A DNA stretch of 64,000 nt from a virus (IMGVR_UViG_3300023176_005537:64001-128000), one strand, 5' to 3'; counted from the first letter of the stretch, positions 45,744 through 62,128 are shown. Numbers and translations: made by a program. The notes: generated by a model not told the origin, from the sequence alone.

Positions 45744-46262
45744 ATGATATTAGGTTTAGATGTTAGCACAAGCATAACTGGAATTTGTGTACTTGACAAA
45801 GAAGAAAATATAGTTTATAATTCTGCTGTGGATACTAGAAAATACAAAAATATGTACGAAAAAGCAGAAAAAGTAAAAGAAAAGCTTAAAGAATTAAAAA
45901 AAGAATATGATATTAATAGCATTTATATTGAAAAGTCTTTGCAATCTTTTAGATCAGGCTTCTCCTCTGCGAAAGTTCTTTCAACATTATCTGCTTTCAA
46001 CGGGATTGTATCTTGGTTCTGTTATGAGATCTATGGAATTTCACCAGAATACATTTCGGCTTCCTCCGCAAGAAAAGATTGCGGTATCAAAGTTCCAAAA
46101 GGCCAAAAGGCAAAGCCCTTTGTTTTAGGAGTTCTGGTGAAAGAAGGTCTAATAAATCCAGAATACACGAAAAAAGGAAATCCAAAACCTATTTATTACG
46201 ATATGTCAGATGCGATTGTCATTGCAAAATCAGGATTTTTAAAAAGGAGAGCAAATAAATGA
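45744..46262 (+). CDS. RuvC-like Holliday junction resolvase
   Basis: ILGLDVSTSITG, IYIEK, D..DAIVIA acidic catalytic pattern. Confidence 0.85.
   Translation: MILGLDVSTSITGICVLDKEENIVYNSAVDTRKYKNMYEKAEKVKEKLKELKKEYDINSIYIEKSLQSFRSGFSSAKVLSTLSAFNGIVSWFCYEIYGISPEYISASSARKDCGIKVPKGQKAKPFVLGVLVKEGLINPEYTKKGNPKPIYYDMSDAIVIAKSGFLKRRANK
45793..45821 (+). promoter_or_regulatory. Consensus sigma70 promoter inside the RuvC-like gene
   Basis: TTGACA-N17-TATAAT exact match. Confidence 0.55.
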
Positions 46263-46699
46263 AAATCACTAAAAAGCTTTTGATGAAGATCATCAAAGAA
46301 GAATTGGTTAGAGAAAGTATGAGCGATTGGCAGGCACACGACCGAAGAGAACGAGGTTTGCCCCCGCTAAAGGCCAATTACGACATTTCCAATAGTATCC
46401 CTCCTGATGGATATGTCCCGCCTCCCGAGCCCAAACTCGAAAACCCCCCTCCCCTTCCACCTGCGACAGAGCAAGATCTGGAAAAAGGAAGAATGGTCAG
46501 TTTTGACGGCCCCTATGAACAACAGATTCATTTCTTGAAAATGCATAATCAATGGTTAAGAAGAGTGTATATGAAGCCTCGCGTAAAGGGCTACGAGAGC
46601 CTAAGCCGGCTTGAGCAACTTAAAGTCCTAGCCAACGGTCCCAATCCCGGTGCGGTCCACGCAGACAAGGGAAGCTTGGAAGACTACCCTCTGGCATAA
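46259..46699 (+). CDS. Hypothetical protein with a KIIKEE leader and Pro-rich core
   Basis: MKITKKLLMKIIKEELVRE N-terminus; AGGAG RBS; CTATTTAT at 46189. Confidence 0.7.
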   Translation: MKITKKLLMKIIKEELVRESMSDWQAHDRRERGLPPLKANYDISNSIPPDGYVPPPEPKLENPPPLPPATEQDLEKGRMVSFDGPYEQQIHFLKMHNQWLRRVYMKPRVKGYESLSRLEQLKVLANGPNPGAVHADKGSLEDYPLA

Positions 46700-46712
46700 T
46701 AAAACAAATCAC

Positions 46713-46741
46713 TTGACAACACCCCCCATTCTTGATATAAT
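46713..46741 (+). promoter_or_regulatory. Consensus sigma70 promoter for the primase operon
   Basis: TTGACA-N17-TATAAT with TG extension, in the intergenic gap. Confidence 0.8.
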
Positions 46742-46770
46742 GTGTGTAACTTTTTCAAAGGAAACCACAC

Positions 46771-47694
46771 ATGAAAGAACTATCCATCCTTAAAAACACA
46801 TTAGATTATGCTTACTCCAAAGGGAGCGAGCATCTTTTCTATTGTCCTTTCTGCAAGCATCACAAACCAAAAATGTCTGTTAACATCTCTAAAAACGTAT
46901 TCAAGTGCTGGGTTTGTGACACAAGCGGTAAAAACGTCTATTACCTTCTAAAAAGATTTGGCTCATTTGATAATCAACAAGAATGGCTGAAGATCACAAA
47001 TCAGATCGATGTTCGCGATTTTGAACTGATCATAACAGGTTCGACAGTCCAAGAAAAGATCAAACAAAAGATCGATCTACCAAAAGAATACAAGCCTCTT
47101 TTTACAGGTTCAATTGACCTTTATTCTCAAAAGCCCCTGAATTATCTTAAATCAAGGGGTTTTTCGCAAGAAAAGATCCTAGAATGGAAGGTTGGATATT
47201 GCCCATCAGGAGAGTACAAAGGAAGAGTAATCATTCCTTCTTTTGATGATGAGGGAGATGTTAGTTATTTTATCTCTAGAACATACGAAAAAGATTGGAA
47301 AAAGTACAAAAACCCAAAAGCATCAAAAGATATTGTATTCAATGACCTTTTGATTGATTGGGAAAAACCAATCATCTTGGTTGAAGGTGTTTTTGATGCG
47401 ATCCATGAAAAGAATATGATCCCGATCTTGGGATCAACCCTCTCAGAAAGATCAGACCTTTTTCAAAAGATTGTTGAAAAAGCCAAGAAGGTTTTTATTG
47501 CTTTAGATCCAGATGCTTACAAAAAAGAGCTTGACATTATCTCAAGTTTGATCAAATATGGAGTAGACGTTTGGAAAATAGAAGTTCCAGAAGGGAAAGA
47601 TTTGAACGACATTTCAAAATATGAATATCAAAGACTAAAAATGACAGCAGTTGAAGTTAGATTTGATACTTTATTTTCAATGATTAACATATAG
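46771..47694 (+). CDS. DNA primase (Zn finger + TOPRIM)
   Basis: CPFC..H...CWVC, RVIIP, KYKNP, LVEGVFD, ALDPD, GKD motifs. Confidence 0.9.
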   Translation: MKELSILKNTLDYAYSKGSEHLFYCPFCKHHKPKMSVNISKNVFKCWVCDTSGKNVYYLLKRFGSFDNQQEWLKITNQIDVRDFELIITGSTVQEKIKQKIDLPKEYKPLFTGSIDLYSQKPLNYLKSRGFSQEKILEWKVGYCPSGEYKGRVIIPSFDDEGDVSYFISRTYEKDWKKYKNPKASKDIVFNDLLIDWEKPIILVEGVFDAIHEKNMIPILGSTLSERSDLFQKIVEKAKKVFIALDPDAYKKELDIISSLIKYGVDVWKIEVPEGKDLNDISKYEYQRLKMTAVEVRFDTLFSMINI

Positions 47695-47703
47695 GAGACA
47701 CAA

Positions 47704-48099
47704 ATGATTGAATTTTTGAAGCAACAAGGCGTTTATGAACTGGTTTGGTTTTTAGGTGGTATTCTAGCTTACATGACTCTGCAATTTGTTGTAGGTGTAA
47801 CACAAGCATTCAAGCTTATGAGGTCTGCAATGTATCTATCTCTTTCTTTTCTTTTGCAGGTTTATGTCGACACTAGACAAGAAATCCAAGAGCAAAAAGA
47901 AAGCTTCAAAAGAATGAATCCAGATTACACAGACTATGCTCTAGAAAAAGAGTTTGATAAAAGAGAGAAAGACGTTGATCTCTGGAGAGACAAGGCATTC
48001 AAAGAATTGCACGGATTATCTCCGGTAGTGTTTAATGCTGTAAGAAGTGAAATTAATGAAAAAATAGAAGAAGTTAAAAAGGGAGGTCTTAATGACTAA
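47704..48099 (+). CDS. Hypothetical membrane protein
   Basis: One or two N-terminal hydrophobic segments; AGGAG RBS. Confidence 0.65.
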   Translation: MIEFLKQQGVYELVWFLGGILAYMTLQFVVGVTQAFKLMRSAMYLSLSFLLQVYVDTRQEIQEQKESFKRMNPDYTDYALEKEFDKREKDVDLWRDKAFKELHGLSPVVFNAVRSEINEKIEEVKKGGLND

Positions 48100-51000
48100 G
48101 TTCGCTCACATCGCAGATACCCATATCAAAAACCTTAAATATCACTACGAGTATGATCTAGTTTTCAAGCAACTTTACAAAGAATTGAAAAAAGAAAAGC
48201 CAGATTATATCATTCATTGTGGTGATATTGCCCACACCAAGACCCAAATCTCACCAGAATTTGTTGAAATCTGCTCTGATTTCTTCAAGAACTTGGCAGA
48301 AATTGCACCAACTTATATTATCTTGGGGAACCACGACGGAAACCTACGCAATAAAAGCCGTCAGGATGCCATTTCTCCCATTGTAGATGCCCTAGGTATA
48401 GCTAACCTCCATTTGATCAAGAACGCGGCTAAAATAAGGCTTCCAGAGCCTTTTACGCTGAATGTGTTGAGCATCTTTGACGAAGACAATTGGGATCTAA
48501 CACAAGATCTCGATCGCATCAACATTGCTCTTTACCATGGAGCAGTCAAAGGGTCGAAAACCGACGTTGGGTATGTGATCGAACACGGTGATGTTGAGAT
48601 CAAAGATCTTAAAAAGTTTGATTATGGTTTTTTGGGAGACATTCACAAGACAAATCAGAAGATCGATCGCAAAGGGAAGATCAGATATGCTGGTTCGACT
48701 GTACAACAGAACTTTGGCGAGACAGATGACAAGGGTTTTTTGATTTGGGAGATTGAAGATAAGGACAAGTTTTCTGTTCGGCATATTCTTTTGGAAAACC
48801 CAAAACCTTTTGTTACAATTAAGCTAACAAAGAAAGGCAAAATTCCAAAATCCGCCAAGCCAAAGCCCGGCTCTAGGATCAGGTTGGTGTCTGAAAGCAA
48901 CATCACGCTCGATGTCCTTAAAAAAGCCATTGAAGACGCTAAAATTGACTTTAAAGCAGAGTCTGTCACTCACTTGAGCAAAGCAGAATTGGCTAAAAAG
49001 AGCGTTGAACTGAAAGACAACGAGATTGAGAACCTTCGAGATGTAGAAGTCCAGAAAAAACTGATGAAAGAGTATCTAGAAGAATTTGAAGTTGAAGATG
49101 ACATTATGGACAAGATTGTAGAACTTAATGCAAAGTACAATTCACTGGTTGAAGGTAATGATGATCAGTTTCGCAATTTAAACTGGAAAATGAAATCCAT
49201 GGAGTGGGAAAACCTTTTCAACTATGGGGGTGATAACTCGCTAGACTTTGAAAAAATGAAAGGAATCATCGGGATCTTTGGGAAAAACTACTCCGGAAAA
49301 TCCAGCATTATTGACTCTTTTCTCCTAGGAGCGTTTAACACCACTTCAAAGCCGGCAAAGAAGAATATTTCCTTTATTAATCAAAACAAGGAAGATGCTA
49401 GCATCGAGCTTAAATTTGACATTGGAGGAGAAGAGTACACTATTTCCAGAAGTATTGAAAAATACGTTAAAAAACTGAAAGGAAAGACAACAGACGAAGC
49501 AAAAGTGAATGTTGATTTCTCTTATTTTGACCCTGCTGCGAAGAAAGTTGTAGAATTGAACGGAAACACAAGAGCAGAGACAGATAGAAATATTCGCAAA
49601 TATATTGGTTCAATTGAAGATTTTCTGATCACATCAATGTCGGCACAGCATGGAGCATTGCAATTTGTGAACGAAGGCTCCACCAAGCGTAAGGAAATCT
49701 TGGCAAAATTCCTAGATTTGGTGTTTTTTGAAGAAAAATTCAAAGCAGCAAAAGAAGACTCCAGAGACCTTAAAGCTCTGATCAAAAAAGAAGAAGAAAG
49801 AAACTTTAAAGACGAGATTTTTGAACAAGAAAGCGCCTTAATCTATAATCAATTAGATTTGGATGAGAAGAAAGAATGCTGTGATCTTCTGAAAGAAGAG
49901 AAGAAAGAAATGGAAAAAGAACTTTCTCTTTTAGAGCACAAAATCAAGTCAGTTCCAGCAAAAATCATCAACGTTGAAAAGTGTAGAAAAGAGTTGAAAA
50001 ACTCAAATCAAATCTTGGAAACCTTGAAGTCAAGCCAAGCTGCGTTGGAAAGCCAGAAAGAAGAGAAAAGTGCTTATTTGAATAAAATCAAAGAGTTCCT
50101 TTCTACTTTTGATCCGGAAGAATATTACCAATCTTACGAGGTCGGTAAAGAAAAAGCCAAGCAAGTTAAATTGATCTTAAATGAGGTAAAACAAGAGGAA
50201 ATCAAGAAGAAGATGGAAGAGAAAAAGATCTCTCTTCTTGATCAAGTTCCTTGTGGAGATCAGTTCAAAACTTGCAAATTCATTAAAGACGCTTTTGTGG
50301 CAAAAACAACAGTTTCAGAGTTGGAATTGGCACTAAAAGGACTTCAGAAGGAAAAAGAAGAAGCACAGAACTATATTGACAGCGACGAATACAAGAAGGC
50401 AGAAGAGTATGTTCAAAACTACGAAAAATTAGTTGAGAAAAAGAACAAAGTTAACTCTGAATTGCTTAAGTTGAAGAACAAAGTGCTTCAGGGTCAAACT
50501 AAGGTTTCATCCACTGAAAGCATTATTTCTGAATTGAAGTCCGACATTAAAGAATACGAAGATAACAGAGAAGCAATTGAAAACTTGGAAGCCCTAGCAA
50601 AAGAAAAAAAGCAACTTAAAAAAGACCTTAAACAAAAAGAAAACGAATATAACACCTGTGAAGCAGAATATATTCACCTTCATACTGTTAAGGGACAAAT
50701 TGAGCAAAAGCTGGAAACTGTCAAAAAAGAGGCAGAAGAATATGAAGAAAATAAAAAGAAGTTCGCAGCATATCATTTGTTCATGACTTGCTATCATAAC
50801 TCTGGCATCTCATATGAGATTATCAAGAAAAGGCTCCCAAAGATCAACGAAGAGGTTCAAAAGATCCTGACAGGAATTGTTGATTTCGAAGTTTTCTTTG
50901 AAACAGAAGAAAAGAAATTGAATATTCTTATTCAACACCAAGGGCACGATCCTAGACCGCTAGAATTAGGCTCCGGAGCCGAAAAGTCCATTGCCGCCAT

Positions 51001-51241
51001 GGCTATAAGGCTGGCTCTATTGAATGTCTCTTCTCTTCCAAAGAGTGATATTTTCATTCTAGACGAGCCGGGAACAGCATTGGATGAAAGCAATCTGGAA
51101 GGCTTTACCAGAATACTTCAAATGATTAAAAACTACTTTAAAACTGTTTTGATCATAAGTCATATGGATTCTCTCAAGGACATTGTTGACTCGACAATTG
51201 ATATTGACAGAGTTGACGGATTTGCGAGAGTAAATCAGTAA
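48092..51241 (+). CDS. Fused SbcD/Mre11 nuclease and SbcC/Rad50 ATPase (T4 gp47-gp46-like)
   Basis: HIADTH, GDIAH, GNHD, GDIH metallophosphoesterase motifs; Walker A GKNYSGKSS; long coiled coil; GSGAE signature; FILDEP Walker B; IISH. Confidence 0.92.
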   Translation: MTKFAHIADTHIKNLKYHYEYDLVFKQLYKELKKEKPDYIIHCGDIAHTKTQISPEFVEICSDFFKNLAEIAPTYIILGNHDGNLRNKSRQDAISPIVDALGIANLHLIKNAAKIRLPEPFTLNVLSIFDEDNWDLTQDLDRINIALYHGAVKGSKTDVGYVIEHGDVEIKDLKKFDYGFLGDIHKTNQKIDRKGKIRYAGSTVQQNFGETDDKGFLIWEIEDKDKFSVRHILLENPKPFVTIKLTKKGKIPKSAKPKPGSRIRLVSESNITLDVLKKAIEDAKIDFKAESVTHLSKAELAKKSVELKDNEIENLRDVEVQKKLMKEYLEEFEVEDDIMDKIVELNAKYNSLVEGNDDQFRNLNWKMKSMEWENLFNYGGDNSLDFEKMKGIIGIFGKNYSGKSSIIDSFLLGAFNTTSKPAKKNISFINQNKEDASIELKFDIGGEEYTISRSIEKYVKKLKGKTTDEAKVNVDFSYFDPAAKKVVELNGNTRAETDRNIRKYIGSIEDFLITSMSAQHGALQFVNEGSTKRKEILAKFLDLVFFEEKFKAAKEDSRDLKALIKKEEERNFKDEIFEQESALIYNQLDLDEKKECCDLLKEEKKEMEKELSLLEHKIKSVPAKIINVEKCRKELKNSNQILETLKSSQAALESQKEEKSAYLNKIKEFLSTFDPEEYYQSYEVGKEKAKQVKLILNEVKQEEIKKKMEEKKISLLDQVPCGDQFKTCKFIKDAFVAKTTVSELELALKGLQKEKEEAQNYIDSDEYKKAEEYVQNYEKLVEKKNKVNSELLKLKNKVLQGQTKVSSTESIISELKSDIKEYEDNREAIENLEALAKEKKQLKKDLKQKENEYNTCEAEYIHLHTVKGQIEQKLETVKKEAEEYEENKKKFAAYHLFMTCYHNSGISYEIIKKRLPKINEEVQKILTGIVDFEVFFETEEKKLNILIQHQGHDPRPLELGSGAEKSIAAMAIRLALLNVSSLPKSDIFILDEPGTALDESNLEGFTRILQMIKNYFKTVLIISHMDSLKDIVDSTIDIDRVDGFARVNQ

Positions 51242-51248
51242 AAAGCAC

Positions 51249-51265
51249 CTATTTATATATAAATA
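51249..51265 (+). promoter_or_regulatory. Candidate late promoter (CTATTTAT followed by T4-type TATAAATA)
   Basis: CTATTTAT at 51249-51256 and TATAAATA at 51258-51265 in a 42-nt gap. Confidence 0.5.
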
Positions 51266-51283
51266 TGTAAAAGGTGTCCAATA

Positions 51284-51703
51284 ATGATCAAGATTAAGTT
51301 CCTCAAAAAACTCCCCGTTTCAGGAGGCAAATGCCCTCCTGCCACACAAGATCTGAAACTAAACACCAAAAATAGAAACGCTTCAATTAAGGCAGAACAC
51401 ATCCAATACGGCCCTTTAAACCTATCTGACGAGGCTTATTGGGAAAGAGCCGCAGAACATTGGAACACCACTCCTGCCGTGGCTAAAAAGTCCAAATGCG
51501 GCAATTGTGTTGCTTTTGATATTTCACCTAGAATGGATGATTGTATGCCCGGCCCTGTGTCCGATAAGGATGGCCGTTTGGGTTACTGCTGGATGCACCA
51601 CTTCAAATGCCACAGTGCGAGAACATGCTACACATGGGCAGCAGGTGGGCCAATCAAAGAAGACAAAGTTTCCCTTGAATGGCAAGAAAAGGGTGAAAAA
51701 TAA
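51284..51703 (+). CDS. Cys-rich hypothetical protein (possible metal / Fe-S binding)
   Basis: CGNC.AF...C...GYC..H.FKC...RTC..W. Confidence 0.7.
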   Translation: MIKIKFLKKLPVSGGKCPPATQDLKLNTKNRNASIKAEHIQYGPLNLSDEAYWERAAEHWNTTPAVAKKSKCGNCVAFDISPRMDDCMPGPVSDKDGRLGYCWMHHFKCHSARTCYTWAAGGPIKEDKVSLEWQEKGEK

Positions 51704-52974
51704 TGCCCTATAAGATCAGGAAAACAAAGTGCAAAAAATCAGATGGTTCTTCCGGAACTCACGTTGTTTATAAAAAAAGCGGTAAGCGTGTCGGATGCAC
51801 AGATGAGCCAGAAGATTACAAAAAAGCTCTTTATGCAGCAGAAGTTAATGAAGTTTTGATCTTGGAAGATACGCTGTATAAAAACGTAGAAGATGACGTG
51901 TTTCTACACTTTACCTTGCGAGATAGAGCTTATAAGATCAGAGAAATGGGAGAATTACTTCGACAGCCCGAAGGTATAGAGAAGTTTGGAACAGATACAA
52001 TTGACGCAGTTTCTTTGATTTGGGGAGATTTTGTCCCCAAAGTGCAGACCAATCACCTAGGCGGCGAAGACATTGTAGCAATCATTTTCAAGACTGATGT
52101 GCCTCCAAAATATGGCTATGTTGAAGAGGTGAAATGGGACGTTGAAAGACTTCCTATTTACGATGTTAGGATTGTGCCTTTCGAAGAAGCAGTTCAAATG
52201 TTGAGAAATGCGCCTGAATATGTCGATGAAATGGATTATGTTCTTTACAAGGAAAATAAACAAATGAATATTGAAGACCTAAGTGCGATCATTCGAGAGG
52301 AAGTTAAGCTTGCACTGGAAGAAGCCAAAAAGAAGAAAAAGAAGAAGAAAAAATCTAAAAAGAAGAAGGGCAAAGACGATCGCTGCACTCGTATTGCAAA
52401 AAGAAAGTATGATGTGTGGCCGTCAGCCTACGCTAGCGGCGCAGTTGTTCAGTGCCGCAGAGGAAAGATTTGGAAAGGTCTAACAGAAGAGAAGGAAATC
52501 ACCCCAGAAGACAAAGAGACAATTTCTGATATTGTAGCCAAATTGAGAGCAGCATCGGAGTCTCACGCTCAAATGGCAAAAGATTTGGAAGATGGTGCAG
52601 CAAAGCTTGAAAAAGGTTCAGAAGCCCATTCTAGCCAAGCAGACAAATTAGAAAAGATGATCCAAGAAAGAAAAAAGAAGAAAAAGAAGTCTAAAAAAAA
52701 AGTAAAAACTGACTTCTCCAAAGAAAAGGACAAAGGCCTTCACGGTTGGTTTGAAAGGCAAGGTGGTAAAGGAAAAAGTAAAGGCTGGGTTGATTGTAAT
52801 ACTTGCCGAACAGACAAGAAAACAGGAAAGAAAACTTGTAAATCTTGTGGTCGTCAAAAAGGCGAGAAAAGAGCAAAATACCCCTCTTGCCGTCCAACCC
52901 CTGCTGCTTGTGGGACTGCTGGCAAAGGAAAGTCTTGGGGTAAAAAGTCTGCTAAAAAAGGAAAAAAGAAATGA
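51703..52974 (+). CDS. Modular basic protein: possible ADP-ribosyltransferase-like domain, internal leader and Cys/Lys-rich modules
   Basis: Distinct modules separated by VNE/LEE/LTE/IQE and poly-Lys linkers; WPSAYASG and GWVDC..KYPSCRP motifs. Confidence 0.65.
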   Translation: MPYKIRKTKCKKSDGSSGTHVVYKKSGKRVGCTDEPEDYKKALYAAEVNEVLILEDTLYKNVEDDVFLHFTLRDRAYKIREMGELLRQPEGIEKFGTDTIDAVSLIWGDFVPKVQTNHLGGEDIVAIIFKTDVPPKYGYVEEVKWDVERLPIYDVRIVPFEEAVQMLRNAPEYVDEMDYVLYKENKQMNIEDLSAIIREEVKLALEEAKKKKKKKKKSKKKKGKDDRCTRIAKRKYDVWPSAYASGAVVQCRRGKIWKGLTEEKEITPEDKETISDIVAKLRAASESHAQMAKDLEDGAAKLEKGSEAHSSQADKLEKMIQERKKKKKKSKKKVKTDFSKEKDKGLHGWFERQGGKGKSKGWVDCNTCRTDKKTGKKTCKSCGRQKGEKRAKYPSCRPTPAACGTAGKGKSWGKKSAKKGKKK

Positions 52975-53816
52975 AAATAAAGATTTTGAAAGAGATGAAA
53001 GGGTGCGGTGGTGTTTATGAAAGATGCCCACATTCCGGGTGCTCCCATTGCAGGAGTGAACACGGTCGAGATTTTGATAAGCACGATCACGAAGGTTCAA
53101 TGGCAAGAACCAATCTTTGGAAAACCAAAAAGTATTGTGAAAAGTTATTAGATATGCTTAATGACAAAGATGATCTTCCAGAGTGGGTTGACGCAAAGAT
53201 CACAAAAGCAACAGACTATCTTTCCTCTGTTAAAAGATATATGGCTGGTGAGATTGCCAGAGATCAGGGAATGCTTGAAGAAAGGCTTTCCGAAGGAATG
53301 AAATATCATATGGATAACAATATTACGATTGATAAAAATATTTATCGCATCCACTCTGACAACTTCTTTTCTCTTTTCAAAGAAGCAAGAAATCTTTGGA
53401 AAAGAGGTTTGGTTAATTTAACAGAAGCTGAAAGATATTACATCTCTGAAACTGAAATTGGAGAGTTTGGCATCTTTGAGGGCAAAAGAGTTCCATTGGA
53501 CTTTCCAATGGTTGAGGAGTCTCTTTTGGAAGCAAAGTATAAAGGAAAGGATGTTAAACTTAACAAGCCACAAAGAGGTGGTTCCAAGAAGTTTTATGTT
53601 TACGTTAGAGATCCAAAAACTAAAAACATTCGCAAAGTTTCTTTTGGAGACAAAGGAATGTCTGTAAAGGTGGCAGATCCAGAGAGAAGAAAGTCTTTTG
53701 CAGCACGACATAAATGCAAGGAAAAAAAAGACAAAACAAAAGCAGGATACTGGGCTTGTCGTATTGGGCGCTACCCTCATCTAACTGGTTCAAAGAAAAG
53801 GTTTACTTGGTGGTAA
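52971..53816 (+). CDS. Modular hypothetical protein (three modules)
   Basis: DHEGSMAR..LPEWVDAKITKA module; LSEGMKYH..FKEAR module; LLEAKYKG..KKFYVYV..VSFGD..RRKSFAARHKC..AGYWAC module. Confidence 0.7.
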   Translation: MKIKILKEMKGCGGVYERCPHSGCSHCRSEHGRDFDKHDHEGSMARTNLWKTKKYCEKLLDMLNDKDDLPEWVDAKITKATDYLSSVKRYMAGEIARDQGMLEERLSEGMKYHMDNNITIDKNIYRIHSDNFFSLFKEARNLWKRGLVNLTEAERYYISETEIGEFGIFEGKRVPLDFPMVEESLLEAKYKGKDVKLNKPQRGGSKKFYVYVRDPKTKNIRKVSFGDKGMSVKVADPERRKSFAARHKCKEKKDKTKAGYWACRIGRYPHLTGSKKRFTWW

Positions 53817-53817
53817 T

Positions 53818-54096
53818 ATGGAATTTCCTTTCAAAGAAAAGAAGTTAGAAAACAATATCGTGATCAGAGAGTTCAAAGAAAATGTTGATTCCGAAGAGCT
53901 TATCTGGCATAGAGATAGAGAAAACAGAGAAGTTACAATCTTGCAATCTTCTGGATGGCAACTTCAAATGGACAATGAAATTCCAAAAACCCTTGAAGAG
54001 GGAAAAACTTATTATATTCCTGCTTTTGTTTACCACAGAGTGATCAAAGGCAGCGGCAATCTTATTGTTAAAATAAAAAAGGAAGAGATTAAATGA
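53818..54096 (+). CDS. Small cupin-like protein
   Basis: WHRD.E.R...GWQLQMD...YIP...YHRVIKG. Confidence 0.65.
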   Translation: MEFPFKEKKLENNIVIREFKENVDSEELIWHRDRENREVTILQSSGWQLQMDNEIPKTLEEGKTYYIPAFVYHRVIKGSGNLIVKIKKEEIK

Positions 54097-55910
54097 AGAT
54101 GAAATTAATCATGGAAAGTTTTCGAAAAACAATGAAAGAATTCAAAGAGAGAGAAGGCAAAACAATGTCTTATGATTCTTCTTTGGGTGGCTTTGTTGTT
54201 TCAAAAGAAGACTTGTCAAAAATCAACCAAGCAATCGAAAAGATCTACAAAGCATTTGAAGAAAGAACCGGAGGAACTGCTGAAAATATCCCTAGGATTG
54301 AAGCAGAAGATCTAGAGCCTGTTGCGGGAGCTTTGAACGAATCGGCGGAACAAGGTGGGGAGCCCACCGAAGAGGAAAAGGATTATATTGCTCTACGACA
54401 TTTTGGATACGATTCATGGAACGAATTGCCCGAAGAAGACAAAGATCTTGTGATGAGAAGGTTGGAGCTTTTCACTTCGGGCGGCGAAATGAAGCAAACC
54501 ATTGGAGCCGTTAGTGGCTTGAAAAAAGGTCTGGGACGTATGAGCCCAGAGGACTTTGAAAAAGGGGGATACGTCCTTCCCGTTTCCGCAGAAGTTCTGG
54601 AAGATTTTCAGGCTATGGTCAATGAATTGAAAGAAGGTGGTGAAGTCGATAGCCTTTTTGAAAAAGCTAGGGACTGGTATCATAAAATTAGAGATCTCCT
54701 CGATGAAGAAACTGGAAATGATCAAGACGCTACTTTGCTAGGTCTTCTTATTGCAACGTACAGCCCCAGAGCAAAGTTTGCTCTGAACTTGGCTGAAGCT
54801 GCTTTTATGTTCAAAGCAGTTGAAATGGATGCAAAGGACAACAAAGAGCTTTTGAGAGAATATATTAATATCTTTCCCGGTGGTAAAAAGAAAAAGCAGG
54901 GAGAATTTCGAGGGTTTACAAAGGCGCACAAAGTTCCAAACTTCACCCTGAACCTGATCGCCCCAGATTTGTCTGGTGGGCGAGATAAAGAAGGGAAAAT
55001 TAGCTATGATGAGCTTTATATGTGGAACTCCACAATTGACACTTGGATGATTGACGCTTTTTATCCAAATGTCAGAGGTGTTACAACGGCAAAAGAATGG
55101 GAAAAGATCAAAGGCAAGATGATGGGTAACGTTGTTACTTATCGGTATATGGCAGGGTTGGTCGCACAGGAAGCGAAAAAACTAGGCCTCTTACCTCATG
55201 AGCTTCAAGCTATTGTGTGGGTTGCTTCTCAAATCAGAAAGACTGGAGAGAAAGGTCTTGGTGTCACTACTGAGTTTGCAATCAATCAAATTAAACAATC
55301 CATTGTCAACCTAGAAAAGATTAAAGAACAATTCAACGAAGAGGAAAGGATTAATAAGAAGTTGGTCGGACCATACCTTAAAGAGTTGGATATGGACAAA
55401 GAATATACAGAACAGTTTGGAGATCAAAGCTGGCTTAAAGTTATTTTGGATAAGATTGAAACAGATGGTTTTGATGAGGCTGCTGATTATATCTTAGGAA
55501 TTAAAAAAGGAGACAAAACGGTTGTTCCCGGTGTGCGCTCTATCACAGCCTCTGGTAAGAAAGGGAAAGAACCAGATCGCTTTAATCCTGTTCGCCCAGA
55601 GTTTAAACCAAAGAAAGAGAAGAAAGAAAAGGAAGAAAAGAAGAAGAAGCCAAAGGACACAAGATATCAAGACGCAGAAAAATATGGAGAACTTAAAACA
55701 TTTTATGTTATGAATGAAGTCATTCAGATGCGAACCGGAAAGTTCAATAACCTTCACGACTCAATTCTTTTGTATTTGAGTGATGATTTCTCTAAAGAAA
55801 AGGCTGTTGATTATATTCTAGGCAGGTTCGACTCCGAAGCAAAAGCCTCCAAAGATTATTTCATCAAAGAAAGCAAAAGAAGATTTGTTGTAAGGATTTT
55901 GAAATCATGA
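54093..55910 (+). CDS. Hypothetical protein with a putative HhH-GPD DNA-glycosylase-like core
   Basis: RDWYH, IATYSPR, KVPNF, TIDTWM, LLPHELQAIVW motif series; MKLIMESFRK..KE leader-like start. Confidence 0.5.
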   Translation: MKMKLIMESFRKTMKEFKEREGKTMSYDSSLGGFVVSKEDLSKINQAIEKIYKAFEERTGGTAENIPRIEAEDLEPVAGALNESAEQGGEPTEEEKDYIALRHFGYDSWNELPEEDKDLVMRRLELFTSGGEMKQTIGAVSGLKKGLGRMSPEDFEKGGYVLPVSAEVLEDFQAMVNELKEGGEVDSLFEKARDWYHKIRDLLDEETGNDQDATLLGLLIATYSPRAKFALNLAEAAFMFKAVEMDAKDNKELLREYINIFPGGKKKKQGEFRGFTKAHKVPNFTLNLIAPDLSGGRDKEGKISYDELYMWNSTIDTWMIDAFYPNVRGVTTAKEWEKIKGKMMGNVVTYRYMAGLVAQEAKKLGLLPHELQAIVWVASQIRKTGEKGLGVTTEFAINQIKQSIVNLEKIKEQFNEEERINKKLVGPYLKELDMDKEYTEQFGDQSWLKVILDKIETDGFDEAADYILGIKKGDKTVVPGVRSITASGKKGKEPDRFNPVRPEFKPKKEKKEKEEKKKKPKDTRYQDAEKYGELKTFYVMNEVIQMRTGKFNNLHDSILLYLSDDFSKEKAVDYILGRFDSEAKASKDYFIKESKRRFVVRILKS

Positions 55911-56623
55911 AGATGGACGAAAAATATCCTCTCCTTCCACACGACGAAGAGATTTCAGATTGGCAATGGTGTATCAAAAAAGCAATCATTGATATTCACG
56001 CCAAAGCAATGCCTTATAAAAGAGGCACTTGGGGTGGTTCAACCGAAGACATTTATTATGACAAAAGAAGGATCTTGAGAAAAGGCGAAGGAACCTACTG
56101 TGTTGGATGCACTTCTGAAATCTTCTTCCGCGCTTGGAAAGAATTCACAGGGGATTACCTTGAAACACCAGAAGGCAACTTTACAGGCAAAGAAGCTTGG
56201 GAAGTTGCAAGAGCCTTTTTCTTTGCTTACAAAGACGAAGAGATTGACGGAATGCGAACAGACGAATTTGGAGCAATGGGTTGGTTTAAATGGTTAGCAA
56301 ACAGACCAGAACGCTTTGATTGGATTGAAACCTTCACAACACACAATCCTTATGAGATCCAATTTGGAGATTGGGTTTCAATGCAGTTTGCAGAAGATTA
56401 TTCATCCGGCCACGCTACAGTGGGGTTGGGATTGGACAAGTACAAAGGCAATGATGTTGTCAACGTTTATTCTTCAACTACTTATTATGATAAAACTTGG
56501 ATGAAAGAAAAGGGCGTTGAAAATCCCTACTCAACAGGGAACGGCTTTGATTATTACCGTTTAAACGTAACAAAGAGTGGATTTAAAAGAAAGTTCTTTG
56601 TTTCAAGATTAGTTCAAAAATAG
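55907..56623 (+). CDS. Putative Cys-His (papain/NlpC-like) amidase, candidate endolysin
   Basis: GTYCVG...GDWV...GHATV; directly upstream of the holin-like gene. Confidence 0.5.
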   Translation: MKMDEKYPLLPHDEEISDWQWCIKKAIIDIHAKAMPYKRGTWGGSTEDIYYDKRRILRKGEGTYCVGCTSEIFFRAWKEFTGDYLETPEGNFTGKEAWEVARAFFFAYKDEEIDGMRTDEFGAMGWFKWLANRPERFDWIETFTTHNPYEIQFGDWVSMQFAEDYSSGHATVGLGLDKYKGNDVVNVYSSTTYYDKTWMKEKGVENPYSTGNGFDYYRLNVTKSGFKRKFFVSRLVQK

Positions 56624-56632
56624 GAGTTTAAA

Positions 56633-56944
56633 ATGGCTAGAAGAACAGCTTTTGTTGATAAATATTTATCATCGTTTATTTCAAAAAAGTTATTGGTTTG
56701 GATTGTCGCAACAGTCGTGTTTTTGACAACTGGCAATCTTAAATCAGGAGATTGGCTTGTGATCTCTGCTATTTACATTGGTGGGCAATCTGTTATTGAC
56801 GCAGTGAAAGCAATGAAAGGCTCGACCAATGTTACAACGAAAGTTGAAACAGCAGTGAAGACAATCTTGTCCGACAAAGACAAGAAAGATGAGAAAGGGA
56901 AAGTTCCCCTTTCTGATACAACAGGCGATACGGTGACAAAATGA
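56633..56944 (+). CDS. Putative holin
   Basis: SKKLLVWIVATVVFL and WLVISAIYIGGQS.IDA transmembrane segments with a charged C-terminal tail. Confidence 0.6.
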   Translation: MARRTAFVDKYLSSFISKKLLVWIVATVVFLTTGNLKSGDWLVISAIYIGGQSVIDAVKAMKGSTNVTTKVETAVKTILSDKDKKDEKGKVPLSDTTGDTVTK

Positions 56945-57354
56945 GTGAGATTTGGGCAGAGGTTAAAAGAAAGTGGACAGAGTCCAAATATTTTATAGCA
57001 GTTGTTTTTGTTTTCTTGACAGTTGCTATTTTTCTTTTGACGACCAGCGATGGTCAAAAAAGATTGAGACAAATCATAAGGTCTTTGCAAAAAAGAAGAG
57101 AAGATGAATTGTACGAAATCCAAGAAAAACAAAATCAAAAAGAAAAAGAAAAGAAAGATTTAAAAAAGAAACATGAGAAGATTTTGGAAGAGATTGGAAA
57201 AGAATACAAGATTGGAAAAGAAAACGCCAAGAAAGAATACGACAAGAAGGTTAAAAAGATCTTGAAACAAACAAAGAAAGATCCTTCTCAGTTGTCCAAA
57301 AGATTGGCAGATGAATTTGGTCTTGACTACAAGGAAGATAATAATGAAAATTAA
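56941..57354 (+). CDS. Putative i-spanin-like protein
   Basis: Single N-terminal TM helix followed by a long Lys/Glu coiled coil; follows the holin-like gene. Confidence 0.5.
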   Translation: MSEIWAEVKRKWTESKYFIAVVFVFLTVAIFLLTTSDGQKRLRQIIRSLQKRREDELYEIQEKQNQKEKEKKDLKKKHEKILEEIGKEYKIGKENAKKEYDKKVKKILKQTKKDPSQLSKRLADEFGLDYKEDNNEN

Positions 57355-57880
57355 AAAAAAACAACTCTTAAAAATCATCAAAGAAGAGCTTTTAAAAGAA
57401 AACATACAAGAACTTTTTGCAACAATAAGACAGCTTATCAATGCCGGCCAATATGACAGGGCATATGCTCAAATCATGGTGCAAATTGATGAAGACGATC
57501 CAAAGCACAAAATGGCAATTGATTATCTTGTTAGGCACAGTGGAGATGATTCGTATGAAGATAAGCTAAATAGTTGGCCTGATAGCGATTTTAGAAAATT
57601 AATTGCATATGGCTTTCTGCAATACGATCATGATTTTGATGACTTTCTGTCGAACTATGTCCAAGGTATCTTCGAAAGTCCCGAAGATTATCTTAAATAT
57701 AGGTGGGAAGAGTACACTTGGGACATGATTGAGGAGCTTCCACTTCCCTCCGACATAGAACGTTATATCGATATCGAAATCAATTGGGCTATGTGGGCAA
57801 GAGACAGTGAGCTTAATGGCGAGTTTGCATCTTGGGAGCTTGATGGCGTTCCCGGAGTTTTGATTATATCCCCAGCATAA
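57344..57880 (+). CDS. KIIKEE-leader protein with an ArdA-like acidic antirestriction domain
   Basis: MKIKKKQLLKIIKEELLKE leader; C-terminal G.FES.EDY...EE...LPSDIERYID...WARD.ELNGEF resembles the ArdA C-terminal domain; very acidic. Confidence 0.6.
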   Translation: MKIKKKQLLKIIKEELLKENIQELFATIRQLINAGQYDRAYAQIMVQIDEDDPKHKMAIDYLVRHSGDDSYEDKLNSWPDSDFRKLIAYGFLQYDHDFDDFLSNYVQGIFESPEDYLKYRWEEYTWDMIEELPLPSDIERYIDIEINWAMWARDSELNGEFASWELDGVPGVLIISPA

Positions 57881-57893
57881 GACAGGAGTAGAA

Positions 57894-58334
57894 ATGATTA
57901 CCTTTAAACGCGTTTTAAGCACCATTCTAGCCACTTTCATCACAATTTCGCCCTGCTATGCCAATAAGTCCACAAGGCTTCAAAAAGGGGCAAAAGCGCC
58001 CTTTTCTGGAACGCTCTTGGATGATGAAGCGGTAGCAAAGATTTTGGCAAAACAAGATTACTTGAAAAAAAGCTTGAAGTTGGATTGTTCTTACCAAAGA
58101 CAAAAAGAAAAAGCAAAGCTTCAATTGAAGATTGATCAATGCAAAGTAGATTTCAAAATTGAGAAAGAATTGAGAAAAAACTTAAGAAAGATTGATCAAG
58201 AAGAGATTACAAGATTAAGAAAGATTGCAAAGCCGCAAAACAATTGGACACCTCTTTGGATCACAATTGGCTTTGTTGCAGGAGCAGGAACAACAATTTT
58301 AATTCTTTATGGAATACAAGGAATTCAAAAGTGA
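57894..58334 (+). CDS. Secreted / membrane-anchored coiled-coil protein, possible spanin partner
   Basis: Signal peptide (..ISPCYA), GAKAPFSGTLL, coiled coil, C-terminal TM helix. Confidence 0.5.
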   Translation: MITFKRVLSTILATFITISPCYANKSTRLQKGAKAPFSGTLLDDEAVAKILAKQDYLKKSLKLDCSYQRQKEKAKLQLKIDQCKVDFKIEKELRKNLRKIDQEEITRLRKIAKPQNNWTPLWITIGFVAGAGTTILILYGIQGIQK

Positions 58335-58786
58335 AGATCAAAAAAGAAACCATTTTCAAGATCATCAAAGAAGAGATTGAAAGAGAACTTTCAAAAGAAG
58401 AAAAGCACAAGATTGTTTCTTTTGATTTTGATGATACCTTGACCTTTGCTCCTTTTGATCCGGAAGAAGAACATTCTGTTTACAAAGGGCCTCATGAGGA
58501 AATGATGAAAAAGATTAGAGGCTATATCGAAGATCCAGAAGTTACCGTTTATATTGTAACAAGCAGAAAGCAGGGCGGCATGGGACAAGTTAAAGGTTTT
58601 GTCGAAAAATATAAATTAAAAGTTGACGGCATTTATTGCACAGACGGAGATTGGAAAGCCCCCACTTTGAAAGAATTGGGTGTAACTTTGCATCATGACG
58701 ATGACAGTCAAGAAAATGAAAGAGCAGAAGCAGTAGGAATCCAGACAGTTCCAAGTGATCCATATGGCGATTACGGCACATTTTAA
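58331..58786 (+). CDS. KIIKEE-leader HAD-superfamily phosphatase
   Basis: GTG start overlapping the upstream TGA; (M)KIKKETIFKIIKEE leader; FDFDDTL (DxD), VTSR, K, HDDD motifs. Confidence 0.75.
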   Translation: MKIKKETIFKIIKEEIERELSKEEKHKIVSFDFDDTLTFAPFDPEEEHSVYKGPHEEMMKKIRGYIEDPEVTVYIVTSRKQGGMGQVKGFVEKYKLKVDGIYCTDGDWKAPTLKELGVTLHHDDDSQENERAEAVGIQTVPSDPYGDYGTF

Positions 58787-58813
58787 AGCAACAGGCCAAT
58801 GGAGAAGTTATAG

Positions 58814-59608
58814 ATGAAAAGTCATAATAGCAATATAAAAATTAAAAAGAATCTTCTCTTCAAAATTCTGAAAGAAGAGATCAAAAAAGAATTTTTGAAA
58901 GAAGGTATTTTAAGGATTCAAGATTATATTTCAAATGAAAATTTGAAATTGATTGAAGATACGTTTCGCAACCTTTTAAATACATATTTAACTTCCGATA
59001 GAGAAGAAAGCCTTTATTGGAATGTTGAGAAATTTGAATTTATAAATGTTGCCGGAGAGGAGGAGGTTGTTGACTTGATGCTTTCCGTTGGTCGGCCACC
59101 AAGAGGAATGGAAGGGGCTGTTGCATATCTAGATGCTAGGCCCAGTATTGGCTATTACCACTTAGCAATGTGTGTGTTAAACAAGGAAGATTATGATATA
59201 GAGGACGGTATTGATACCATGATTAATCATGAATTAATTCACTTGATAGATTCAAAATATTTTAAACGAAAAGACAGGAAAAAAGCTTACTTAGCTAGGC
59301 GAGAAGAAATTTTAGCTTTTTCTAGTCAGATATATAAACAGGTTGTTGACTTTTTAAATTCGGAAGATGAGCAGGACAAAGATTATTTGAATATTTTGCT
59401 TAATCTTTATAAAGATGGTGCGATAAAACAATTACAATTATTTAAAGCTATATTAAAGACTAGTCAACAGCTTGGAGCGATAGGCAAAGATCCCAGATTT
59501 ATAAAATCTATAATGCATCAGCACACAATGAAAGATAAGCAACCTTATTTAAAACATCTTTACAAAAAATTGTGGCCATTGATTCAAAAGAAACTTCAGG
59601 AGGTTTAA
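58814..59608 (+). CDS. KILKEE-leader zincin-like metallopeptidase
   Basis: IKIKKNLLFKILKEE leader; HELIH (HExxH) with a downstream EE..AF third ligand. Confidence 0.6.
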   Translation: MKSHNSNIKIKKNLLFKILKEEIKKEFLKEGILRIQDYISNENLKLIEDTFRNLLNTYLTSDREESLYWNVEKFEFINVAGEEEVVDLMLSVGRPPRGMEGAVAYLDARPSIGYYHLAMCVLNKEDYDIEDGIDTMINHELIHLIDSKYFKRKDRKKAYLARREEILAFSSQIYKQVVDFLNSEDEQDKDYLNILLNLYKDGAIKQLQLFKAILKTSQQLGAIGKDPRFIKSIMHQHTMKDKQPYLKHLYKKLWPLIQKKLQEV

Positions 59609-59949
59609 TGAAAGATCAGAATTATGTTGTGAAAATGGAGAAAGCAATCTCCGAAAAGTGGGGTGCAGAGGCAATTCAAAACCCAAAAGCAGGATGGGAT
59701 CAAGAAAAAGAAAAAGAATATCTTGAACAGTTGAAAGAAAAAGAAAGAAAAAAGAGAGATTTAGAGAAAAAAGCAAAACAAAATCTTTCAAAAGTGGCAA
59801 GAGCGTGTCCTATTTGTGAACAAGACAAGATTAGTTCAAGGCACGATGTTTATTTCACAAAGTTTTCTTGTTGTTTTGATTGCTATGTGCAGTGGATTGA
59901 AGGTAGAGAGCAAAGATGGAAGGAAGGTTGGAGACCAGACAAAAAATAG
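59608..59949 (+). CDS. Zinc-finger hypothetical protein
   Basis: CPIC...CFDC; ATG 59608 after AGGAGG, overlapping the previous stop. Confidence 0.7.
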   Translation: MKDQNYVVKMEKAISEKWGAEAIQNPKAGWDQEKEKEYLEQLKEKERKKRDLEKKAKQNLSKVARACPICEQDKISSRHDVYFTKFSCCFDCYVQWIEGREQRWKEGWRPDKK

Positions 59950-59968: not shown

Positions 59969-59976
59969 CTATTTAT
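59969..59976 (+). promoter_or_regulatory. Candidate late promoter (CTATTTAT) for the terminase-portal operon
   Basis: Motif in the intergenic gap 40 nt upstream of ATG 60009. Confidence 0.5.
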
Positions 59977-60529: not shown

Positions 60530-62128
60530 ATGTCTAAAAATGCTGCAAGAATTCCAAAGAAACAAATTAAAGCGGAAATCCTCAAATCAGGTAGAGATCC
60601 GGTTTATTTTATCAATAACTATGTAAAAACTGTCCACCCAGTTCGTGGAGCAGTCCCTTTCAAGACTTACCCTTTCCAAACAGAACTTTTAAAAGAATTT
60701 CAAAACAATCGCTACAATATCATCCTTAAAGCAAGGCAGTTGGGTATCTCCACCTTGAGTGCGTCTTATATTCTTTGGATGATGTTGTTTTCTCAAAACA
60801 AAAACATTCTTGTTATTGCAACAAAGCTCCAAACAGCCGGGAACTTGGTTAGAAAAGTCAAACAAATGATGAACTCTCTCCCCAGTTGGATGAGGATTGC
60901 ATCAATCAAGATTGATAACCGAACTTCTTTTGAACTTTCAAACGGTTCGCAAATCAAAGCATCTGCCACTTCCGCTGATGCAGGTCGTTCGGAAGCTCTT
61001 TCTCTTTTGGTTATTGATGAAGCTGCTCATATTGAGAACATGGACGAGCTTTGGGCTGGTCTTTATCCCACAATTTCAACCGGTGGTCGTGTTATTGCAC
61101 TTTCTTCTCCAATGGGCGTTGGGAACTGGTTTCACAAGATGTGCGTTGGAGCAGAAAACAGCGAAAATGACTTCTTTTTGACCACTTTACCTTGGGATGT
61201 TCACCCTGAAAGGGACGATAACTGGTTTAAAAAAGAAACAAACAACCTCCCGCAAAGAAAGATTGCACAGGAATACCTTTGTTCATTCAACGCTTCCGGT
61301 GAAACTGTTGTTCACGCTGACGATCTTACTTTTTATGAGAAGAAAGTGGAGATCCCAAAGTACAAATCAGGGTTTGACAGAAACTATTGGATCTGGAAAG
61401 AAGCAGAAAAAGGCAAAAACTATCTTATTTCAGCAGACGTTGCTAGGGGTGACGGAAGAGACCATTCTGCTTTTCATGTTGTTGACGTTGAAGAGATGGA
61501 TATCGTAGCAGAATATTGTGGAAAACCTTCAATTGACCTTTTTGCCACTTTTCTGCAAGATGTTGCTAGGGAATATGGAAATCCTCTTTTGGTTGTGGAA
61601 AACAACAACATTGGATACGCAGTTTTAGAGAAGCTAATCGAAGCAGGGTATCCAAATCTTTACTTTTCCATCAAAGGTTCGGGTGAATACATTGATTCTT
61701 TTGCTGCCGAGACAAGAACTGGGTCTGTTCCCGGCTTTTCAACATCTCACAAGACCAGACCCCTGATCATTGCAAAGTTGGAAGAATTCATCAGAAATAA
61801 ACTACTTAATATCAAATCAAACCGCCTTATACAAGAGTTAAGAACGTTTGTTTGGAACAATGGCCGACCAGAAGCAATGAAAGGTTACAATGATGACCTT
61901 ACAATGTCTTTGGCGATTGCTTGCTGGGTTAGAGACACCGCCATTGTCCAAGGAAGAAGGAACGATGACTTTAAAAGAGCCTTGATTGGTGGAATTATGT
62001 CAACAAGATCTGGATTGGATGTTAGAGTTCCGGGTCAAAGAGATTACAATAGAAACGCAGATCTGCAAAGAAAAGCAAGACAAGCTGCGAAACAACAAGA
62101 ACAATTCAGTTGGGTATACAAAGGATAA
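60530..62128 (+). CDS. terL: Terminase large subunit (T4 gp17-like)
   Basis: YPFQ, LKARQLGIST Walker A, LLVIDEAAH Walker B, SADVARGDG.D.S nuclease, GYNDDL.MS. Confidence 0.95.
   Translation: MSKNAARIPKKQIKAEILKSGRDPVYFINNYVKTVHPVRGAVPFKTYPFQTELLKEFQNNRYNIILKARQLGISTLSASYILWMMLFSQNKNILVIATKLQTAGNLVRKVKQMMNSLPSWMRIASIKIDNRTSFELSNGSQIKASATSADAGRSEALSLLVIDEAAHIENMDELWAGLYPTISTGGRVIALSSPMGVGNWFHKMCVGAENSENDFFLTTLPWDVHPERDDNWFKKETNNLPQRKIAQEYLCSFNASGETVVHADDLTFYEKKVEIPKYKSGFDRNYWIWKEAEKGKNYLISADVARGDGRDHSAFHVVDVEEMDIVAEYCGKPSIDLFATFLQDVAREYGNPLLVVENNNIGYAVLEKLIEAGYPNLYFSIKGSGEYIDSFAAETRTGSVPGFSTSHKTRPLIIAKLEEFIRNKLLNIKSNRLIQELRTFVWNNGRPEAMKGYNDDLTMSLAIACWVRDTAIVQGRRNDDFKRALIGGIMSTRSGLDVRVPGQRDYNRNADLQRKARQAAKQQEQFSWVYKG

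Follow-up and report, generated by a model that had tools for sequence, protein, structure and literature searches.

We analysed a window of 64,000 nucleotides (bases 64001-128000) of IMGVR_UViG_3300023176_005537, a 156,945-bp IMG/VR phage record, in which four unrelated genes open with nearly the same peptide, here called the leader (MKI[TK]KxxLxKI[IL]KEE). Positions are those of the window unless they are marked as genome positions, which are counted from the first base of the record. The four leader genes of the window, H, I, J and K, and one internal copy of the leader are as follows.

46259-46699, + strand: gene H, leader protein of 146 residues; the leader is residues 1-16 (46259-46306), hidden Markov model (HMM) score 31.7 bits
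57344-57880, + strand: gene I, leader protein of 178 residues; leader at 57344-57391, found by regular expression and HMM
58331-58786, + strand: gene J, leader protein of 151 residues with a GTG start; leader at 58331-58378, found by regular expression and HMM
58814-59608, + strand: gene K, leader protein of 264 residues; the leader is residues 8-23 (58835-58882), after a 7-residue extension
52264-52323, + strand: degenerate internal leader, MNIEDLSAIIREEV.., at the joint within a fused Lys-rich protein of 423 residues (51703-52974); below the HMM threshold

That four otherwise unrelated reading frames start with a near-identical peptide had been claimed in an earlier reading of the DNA (the original prediction), and the claim was borne out. 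A strict regular expression, run over the six frames of the window, gave exactly four matches, all on the + strand and at gene starts (46259, 57344, 58331 and 58835). Genome-wide, the same expression found three further copies and the leader HMM four weaker ones, giving 11 leader genes in total, with HMM E-values of 1e-6 to 1e-11 (against 3,387 six-frame segments). Neither the expression nor the HMM gave a comparable match on the minus strand of the whole genome. Chance likeness of Lys/Ile-rich N-termini, considered as a source of the 11 copies, was ruled out by the HMM E-values. The seven extra leader genes (genome 45294, 47290, 48087, 48761, 49275, 49592 and 50839) form one cluster, 12-19 kb upstream of the window. 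The parts of the proteins that follow the leader, referred to below as cargo, were mutually unrelated by BLASTP, save for two pentapeptide-repeat proteins. Three of the cluster genes have about 45 nt of upstream DNA in common besides the leader; in genes I, J and K the upstream DNA is unrelated and the peptide is kept. Leader-like remnants were also found at the C-termini of three proteins in the 45-51 kb cluster.

The weaker copies originally proposed fared less evenly. From the sequences compared, the copy at 52264 is a degenerate leader at a gene-fusion joint: it can be recognized as decayed because in P0097, a database homologue, that exact position is taken by a canonical leader, immediately before the same DDRCTRIAK..WPSAYASG module as follows 52264. 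The proposed internal fifth copy therefore stands as a decayed leader and not as one that the HMM would pick up. Shorter relatives had also been proposed at 51284, 52971 and 54093; these had no HMM score, and we regard them as ordinary Lys/Ile-rich starts in an AT-rich genome.

The leader is not confined to this genome. Among 5.8 billion proteins searched with a profile, 102 leader proteins of 71-1,325 residues were found, with the motif at residue 1 in nearly all of them, and an exact degenerate DNA pattern was found in at least 118 IMG/VR stretches, often with 2-4 copies in a few kb, on contigs of 30-293 kb. An HMM rescan of the pattern loci gave at least 349 matches, 302 of which begin at an ATG without a long upstream frame, the remainder beginning mostly at GTG; tandem arrays of up to 12 leader genes in about 13 kb occur among the matches listed. 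There are at least 300 distinct leader proteins in at least 241 cargo clusters, with a median length of 107 residues.

Conservation was measured on a set of 300 leader proteins drawn from these stretches. Information content was 3-4.3 bits at positions 1-5, 8, 11, 12, 14 and 15, fell to 1.5-1.75 bits at position 16, and was below 1 bit at position 17 and beyond. For the 138 copies that had not been seeds of the DNA pattern the profile was the same (L8 94%, I11 86%, I12 94%, E14 97%), although they were still selected by the HMM and positions 1-5 are therefore somewhat ascertained. The conserved residues are encoded by mixed synonymous codons: Ile3 is ATC in 53%, ATT in 25% and ATA in 13% of copies, and Leu8 is written with four codons. 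As the codons vary synonymously while the residues are fixed, the leader is under selection at the level of the peptide. A purely RNA-level or translation-start role was rejected as the main explanation on the same grounds. A side observation on the codons is that the leader pairs Lys-Ile (AAG ATC) and Glu-Ile (GAG ATC) yield GATC, with up to three per leader (genome 45294-45345, window 46259 and 58331).

The cargo of the four window proteins differs from one to the next. Protein H is Pro-rich and matched no Pfam or PHROG family; it has an exact copy in the database and a 90% relative that retains the leader. Its gene lies between a RuvC-like gene and a primase gene. The 'lysis cassette', named in the original prediction as another place of insertion, is a weakly based label. 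Protein I is very acidic (isoelectric point, pI, 4.15), and its homologue search gave 6 proteins only. It had no match to Pfam ArdA (PF07275) at E <=0.01 and no PDB sequence match; its ESM Atlas model (pLDDT 0.59) aligns to an ArdA cluster at TM 0.50, and shorter viral 'anti-restriction' clusters align to it only from residue 23-30. On this modelling, the cargo of protein I is possibly ArdA-like. Protein J, whose GTG start is also used by the database homologues P0010 and P0016, has a DFDDT motif (compare the DxDxT motif I) and matches PHROG 1238 at E 2.3e-7; its match to the Pfam 5-nucleotidase family (E 7.6e-4, 18.8 bits) is under the 28.2-bit cut-off. The motif and these weak family matches suggest a HAD-like cargo.

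Protein K has an HExxH...E pattern (H139, E140, H143 and E165) that is invariant in 7 homologues. In its AlphaFold2 (AF2) model (pTM 0.75), the leader forms a separate helix (residues 3-30, pLDDT 52-68) before a confident domain. Fold searches with this model (Foldseek, VIA) gave thimet oligopeptidase, ArdC, CapP and PprI as the best matches, all at noise level. The cargo is unrelated, as had been claimed. Of the labels given to it, HExxH describes an invariant pattern and HAD-like has the motif and weak family matches behind it; the zincin label is weakly based, the fold searches giving no significant match, and ArdA is a lead from the TM 0.50 alignment only.

The family of protein K is also informative on how the leader moves. 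One homologue starts with a canonical leader, protein K carries it after the 7-residue extension, in which ATA replaces the old ATG, and two homologues (42% identity) are without it. Judged by these sequences, the leader is portable, and this part of the original prediction was upheld. In some database proteins (P0014, P0022, P0029, P0037 and others) the leader is 'internal', with its Met kept and a translated ribosome-binding site before it (..EGK directly followed by MKITK..). Neighbouring leader genes have therefore often been fused in frame, which would be tolerable for a tag that is cut by a protease. When 150 leader proteins were scanned against Pfam, about 140 matched no family; the matches included 3 proteins with pentapeptide repeats, 2 with leucine-rich repeats (LRR), and one each with a GNAT acetyltransferase domain, sigma-70 region 2, FliG_C and a weak 5'-nucleotidase match. 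None of the 150 had a DNA-replication enzyme domain. An equally common motif on replication enzymes, which had been named as an outcome that would tell against capsid targeting, was thus not what we found.

Genes for DNA packaging and the head follow gene K and continue beyond the window.

60530-62128, + strand: large terminase, T4 gp17 type (PHROG 2, E 1e-51)
62132-64000, continuing past the window end, + strand: portal protein, T4 gp20 type (PHROG 213, E 3e-71)
genome 129930-130355, beyond the window: prohead protease, Peptidase_S77, T4 gp21 type (Pfam PF03420, E 2.7e-31)
beyond the window: major capsid gene, gp23 type (PHROG 138)

The genes of the window are nearly all on the + strand, at a G+C content of about 36-40%. 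The large terminase shares 46% identity with its counterparts in Microcystis phage Mel-JY01 and Flavobacterium phage immuto. Genome 129834-136857 holds, beyond the window, the S77 protease, a leader-like post-protease protein, a scaffold-like gene (133984-135033) and the major capsid gene, and the adaptor and tail sheath genes likewise lie beyond it. As the genome has a T4-type head-assembly module, the comparison with T4 made in the original prediction is legitimate. The S77 protease has a short amphipathic tail at its C-terminus (genome 130390-130433), ..KINSLLDDILKG, which in a relative (among L131 and L136) reads ..KDIINETLDDILGDNI; by analogy with what has been proposed for T4 gp21, it may be the protease's own prohead-targeting tail.

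The most telling link between the leader and the head is the leader motif of the post-protease protein. This conserved protein of about 130-150 residues is encoded shortly after the protease gene in every head module read (genome 130435-130830 here). Its N-terminus reads M-x-K-[ST]-[EQ]-L-K-x-[IL]-[IL]-K, and in the 240-290 kb phages M-A-K-[IV]-[SK]-R-x-x-L-K-x-L-[IV]-K-E-C-L. When its profile was compared with that of the leader by hhalign, with the one canonical-leader member taken out, the two matched over 26 columns with a probability of 82% (E 1e-5). No Pfam or PHROG family, no tblastn match in cultured phages and no similarity to T4 gp68 was found for it. Its AF2 model (pTM 0.25) has a confident N-terminal helix (residues 5-25, pLDDT 84-87), two more helices and a disordered tail, as might be expected of a scaffold-like protein or core component. 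The motif thus stands both on variable cargo and on a head-module protein, which is what the check suggested originally had asked.

Leader genes also tend to lie near head genes. Of 17 head modules read, 5 have canonical leader genes right next to the protease gene, which is the position of T4 genes 67 and 68, and in a sixth contig of the 17 a leader gene adjoins the large terminase gene. Neighbourhoods of 5.5 kb around the S77 gene contained leader genes in 4 of 12 cases, compared to 1 of 15 neighbourhoods around ClpP. S77 was found in 25 of 32 leader-bearing records (16 of 19, then 9 of 13), including all 6 of those at least 90% complete; the records without it are 3-24% complete, with one exception, G027 (85%). 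As far as sampled, the leader is confined to phages with a T4-type head module.

A promoter-like word, CTATTTAT, is common to leader genes and structural genes. The + strand of the genome has 18 copies of it and the - strand none (about 4.7 expected per strand). Of the 18, 14 lie 20-75 nt before a start codon, a zone that makes up 6% of the genome, and the usual distance from the start codons of structural and leader genes is 35-50 nt. The word precedes the scaffold/capsid pair, the adaptor, sheath and pre-terminase genes and two large tail-region genes. Among leader genes, it precedes those at genome 45294, 47290, 48761, 49592 and 110259 (window 46259), and the one at 50839 has a version with one base changed. 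Its copies in the window are listed here.

46189-46196, + strand: CTATTTAT, 70 nt upstream of leader gene H
51249-51256, + strand: CTATTTAT, overlapping a TATAAATA; heads the gene string 51284-59949, which includes leader genes I, J and K
59969-59976, + strand: CTATTTAT, 40 nt upstream of the pre-terminase gene; opens the packaging and head module
13922, 14844, 38996 and 42394, + strand: further copies of CTATTTAT

After the copy at 51249, the next is only at 59969. In relatives, too, the word is found upstream of the scaffold gene, at a distance of 34-40 nt, and of a sheath gene, and its enrichment upstream of leader genes is 6-fold. Its placement suggests that it is probably part of the clade's structural-gene (late) promoter, which would differ from T4's TATAAATA. 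The T4 late promoter was not found upstream of leader genes, save for one copy at 51258, and sigma-70-type promoters in the leader cluster were not above expectation (33, compared to 22.6 +/- 5.4 in shuffled sequence).

What is the leader for? We lean, by a little, towards the view that it is a prohead-loading tag, similar to the capsid targeting sequence (CTS) of T4, and that it is clipped after I-x-E by the gp21-type protease. A tag of 15-16 residues, M-K-I-T-K-x-Q-L-K-x-I-I-K-E-E-[LI], would dock a protein to the scaffolding core of the T4-type prohead, and would do so as a copy of the N-terminus of the conserved helical head-assembly protein encoded right after the protease gene. Unrelated genes that gained the tag and were transcribed with the structural genes would have their products co-assembled into the prohead. 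There, I12-x-E14 would be the site at which the gp21-type serine protease cuts, just after Glu14, with a second possible cut near residues 18-22 in about half of the proteins. Docking to the core, late timing and cleavage are all steps that we infer from patterns in the sequences.

The pattern expected to matter for cleavage is regular. [LI]-x-E ends at residue 14 in 11 of 11 copies in the genome and in 97% of the 300 copies listed, compared to 1.1% per position beyond residue 40, and 39% of the copies listed contribute to a second peak at positions 21-22. Conservation of the leader stops 1-2 residues past Glu14, which is what a cleavage site constrained on its P side only would show. The capsid-targeting idea of the original prediction thus gains from the gene neighbourhood, the post-protease motif, the promoter-like word and the I-x-E end; its injected-effector step is the weakest part.

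In T4, ipII and ipIII both start with the CTS, MKTYQEFIAE. Mullaney and Black reportedly described it in 1996 on IPI, IPII, IPIII and Alt, from which the gp21 prohead protease is said to remove it. The first ten residues are enough for packaging, residues 4 and 7 being important for targeting and residues 8 and 10 for gp21 processing, and Alt is clipped at both ends; the authors suggested that the CTS is an evolutionary device to pack varied proteins (PMC9026906). The internal proteins of T-even phages are diverse defence proteins with only the CTS in common (PMC3012670). The leader resembles the CTS in that L8, I11, I12 and E14, the best-conserved residues of its second half, are spaced as Y4, F7, I8 and E10. 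Both are short and N-terminal, have a Met-Lys start and an I-x-E end, and occur on unrelated proteins in phages with a gp21-type protease and a gp22/gp23-type head, with cargo that differs between related phages. In contrast to the 3-4 tagged genes of T4, there are at least 11 per genome here and hundreds of cargo families in the clade, and the leader motif is also found on the conserved post-protease head protein. The leader is, moreover, known here from sequence alone. The literature searched had no description of the leader motif, and the Far-T4 paper does not mention it.

Other systems are similar in part. In the giant phages phiKZ, 201phi2-1 and SPN3US, N-terminal propeptides of head-internal proteins are cut after x-E by a gp21-related protease, and paralogues may share identical first residues; unlike the leader, these propeptides are 80-130 residues long, end in A/S/G-x-E, and lack a single portable consensus on unrelated cargo (PMC5694885). 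The cargo-loading peptides of encapsulins and the scaffold-derived tags with which P22 or HK97 procapsids are filled likewise use a short terminal helix (N or C) to dock cargo inside an HK97-fold shell or scaffold. However, in encapsulins it is the shell protein itself that the tags bind, they stay uncleaved, and no DNA is packaged or delivered to another cell. DarA and DarB of phage P1 and the polyvalent proteins, reportedly described by Iyer et al. in 2017, resemble the proposed system in that counter-defence proteins are carried in the capsid with the DNA, but they are large multidomain proteins without a short common leader, whereas here small proteins each have their own tag.

Several observations weigh against a CTS-like tag. 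The likeness to the CTS is one of pattern, between 10 residues and 16, and is too short for homology statistics; in helices rich in Lys, Glu and Ile, tripeptides of the form I/L-x-E are common. The co-occurrence with S77 reflects clade membership and not a functional link, as leaderless T4-type phages also have S77, and the late timing of CTATTTAT rests only on the genes that it precedes. No canonical leader was found in the cultured phages Mel-JY01, S-RSM4, S-SRM01, HTVC008M and LR756508. Flavobacterium phage immuto has a leader variant only, MKKSQLRQIIKEAL, at the start of immuto136C_190, and when one leader protein was compared by tblastn with 50,697 phage records, a single weak match resulted. 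The cargo, furthermore, is mostly acidic, with a median pI of 4.86 and 75% of it below pI 6 (compared to 42% of all genes), whereas the internal proteins of T4 are described as basic (PMC9026906). Given this difference, many of the tagged proteins could be expendable components of the prohead core, which is why injection is the least secure step.

If the tag does load the prohead, most cargo might be nothing more than disposable core or scaffold filler, degraded and expelled before DNA entry, so that no arsenal is injected. This is the fate of gp67, gp68 and gp22 of T4, which are core or scaffold proteins degraded and expelled before the DNA enters. The acidic cargo resembles gp67, whose sequence ends in a long Asp/Glu run; many leader genes are at the gp67/gp68 position beside the protease gene; and leader proteins are short, about 140 of the 150 scanned being without a known domain. 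We nevertheless consider filler unlikely. Folded enzyme-like or binding cargo (HExxH, HAD-like, GNAT, LRR, and pentapeptide repeats of up to 617 residues) would be wasteful for this purpose, and the 241 unrelated clusters suggest diversifying selection, which is typical of conflict genes and not of a structural role. It is also conceivable, if quite unlikely, that the leader serves another hub altogether, as a signal for docking or for degradation that a Clp-type unfoldase/protease recognizes, or as a helix that attaches to a host machine such as RNA polymerase; host-takeover proteins would then be marked for timed removal or recruitment. Flynn et al. are said to have reported in 2003 that the signals recognized by ClpX include a class of N-terminal ones of the type Met-basic-hydrophobic. 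The small size and acidity of the cargo, and its effector-like character (pentapeptide repeats, LRR, GNAT, sigma-70 region 2), would fit. The genome encodes ClpP (PF00574, E 1.5e-32) at genome 21419-22099, beside a 427-residue gene and a Cpn60-type chaperonin, and ClpP is present in 12 of 16 leader-bearing records, including 6 of 6 complete ones, both of which also count against prohead loading. However, Mel-JY01 has ClpP without the leader and immuto has a leader variant without ClpP, leader genes are near the S77 gene (4 of 12 loci) and rarely near ClpP (1 of 15), and a signal for such a hub would leave unexplained both the motif of the head-module protein and the upstream word common to leader and structural genes.

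The common upstream DNA of the three cluster genes could instead indicate that the leader is the passenger of a mobile cassette of promoter, ribosome-binding site and first codons, or that it serves as a recombination handle by which genes are exchanged, the peptide itself having little function beyond translation initiation. Such a cassette would be in keeping with the tandem arrays, the in-frame fusions with a translated ribosome-binding site and the C-terminal leader remnants, and codons 2, 4 and 14 are A-rich beyond background. It would not account for genes I, J and K, which keep the peptide behind unrelated upstream DNA, nor for synonymous sites that are free while 10 residues are 86-100% conserved over hundreds of copies. 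The conservation of the amphipathic helix extends to residue 16, past known start-codon context effects, and a 7-residue N-terminal extension is tolerated. We therefore judge a cassette of this kind to be very unlikely.

The ClpP gene is part of a proteostasis-like module at genome 20763-24972, outside the window, which follows a copy of CTATTTAT and consists of a 182-residue gene, ClpP, the 427-residue gene and the chaperonin, of Cpn60/GroEL type. ClpP in this genome has an 85-residue N-terminal extension, and relatives sometimes have two copies.

Prohead loading followed by injection is the further-reaching form of the CTS-like reading, and one that we think possible, if doubtful. In this form, an uncultured ocean and brackish clade of T4-type phages (about 150-290 kb) would load hundreds of small, mostly acidic and fast-evolving proteins for injection through a universal and readily recognizable 16-residue code that mimics the N-terminus of a prohead-core protein, the cargo including DNA mimics, pentapeptide/LRR binders, an acetyltransferase and a sigma-like factor. 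If the tag loads the capsid, leader searches would show, from sequence alone, which proteins are delivered together with the DNA by abundant, uncultured marine phages, and would give access to a large set of as yet unexplored proteins with probable roles in host takeover and counter-defence. The T4 CTS principle would then hold for a large environmental clade and not only for a few E. coli phages, and the implication would be that such tags may arise by copying the N-terminus of a core protein. If injection occurs as well, the proteome injected in the first minute could be read from metagenomes by searching for the leader. On the practical side, the 16-residue tag could be tried as a means of loading foreign proteins into the heads of non-model phages.

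Three further observations concern the record itself and the genes ahead of the terminase. The first kb or so of the record (genome 479-1561) and the last (155892-156945) apparently encode the same protein, the first 40 residues printed being identical. For this reason the record, which is given in IMG/VR as linear and 86% complete, is probably a complete genome with terminal redundancy or circular permutation. A block at genome 30000-45000, outside the window, has a G+C content of 47-55%, compared to 34-40% for the genome, and stops where the leader-gene cluster starts; acquisition as an island or a chimeric assembly could account for it. Within the window, 51703-53816 encodes two very Lys-rich proteins, the first with an RCxRIAKxKYDVWPSAYASG module and a GWVDCN..CGRQ..KYP.CRP tail. 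P0097 contains both pieces, and parts of it were found by tblastn in Flavobacterium, Synechococcus, Pelagibacter and Roseobacter phages and in Nitrosopumilaceae viruses. The Lys-rich pair lie in the late-looking string before the terminase, and if internal head proteins of the basic, DNA-bound kind are sought, they are more promising candidates than the acidic leader cargo.

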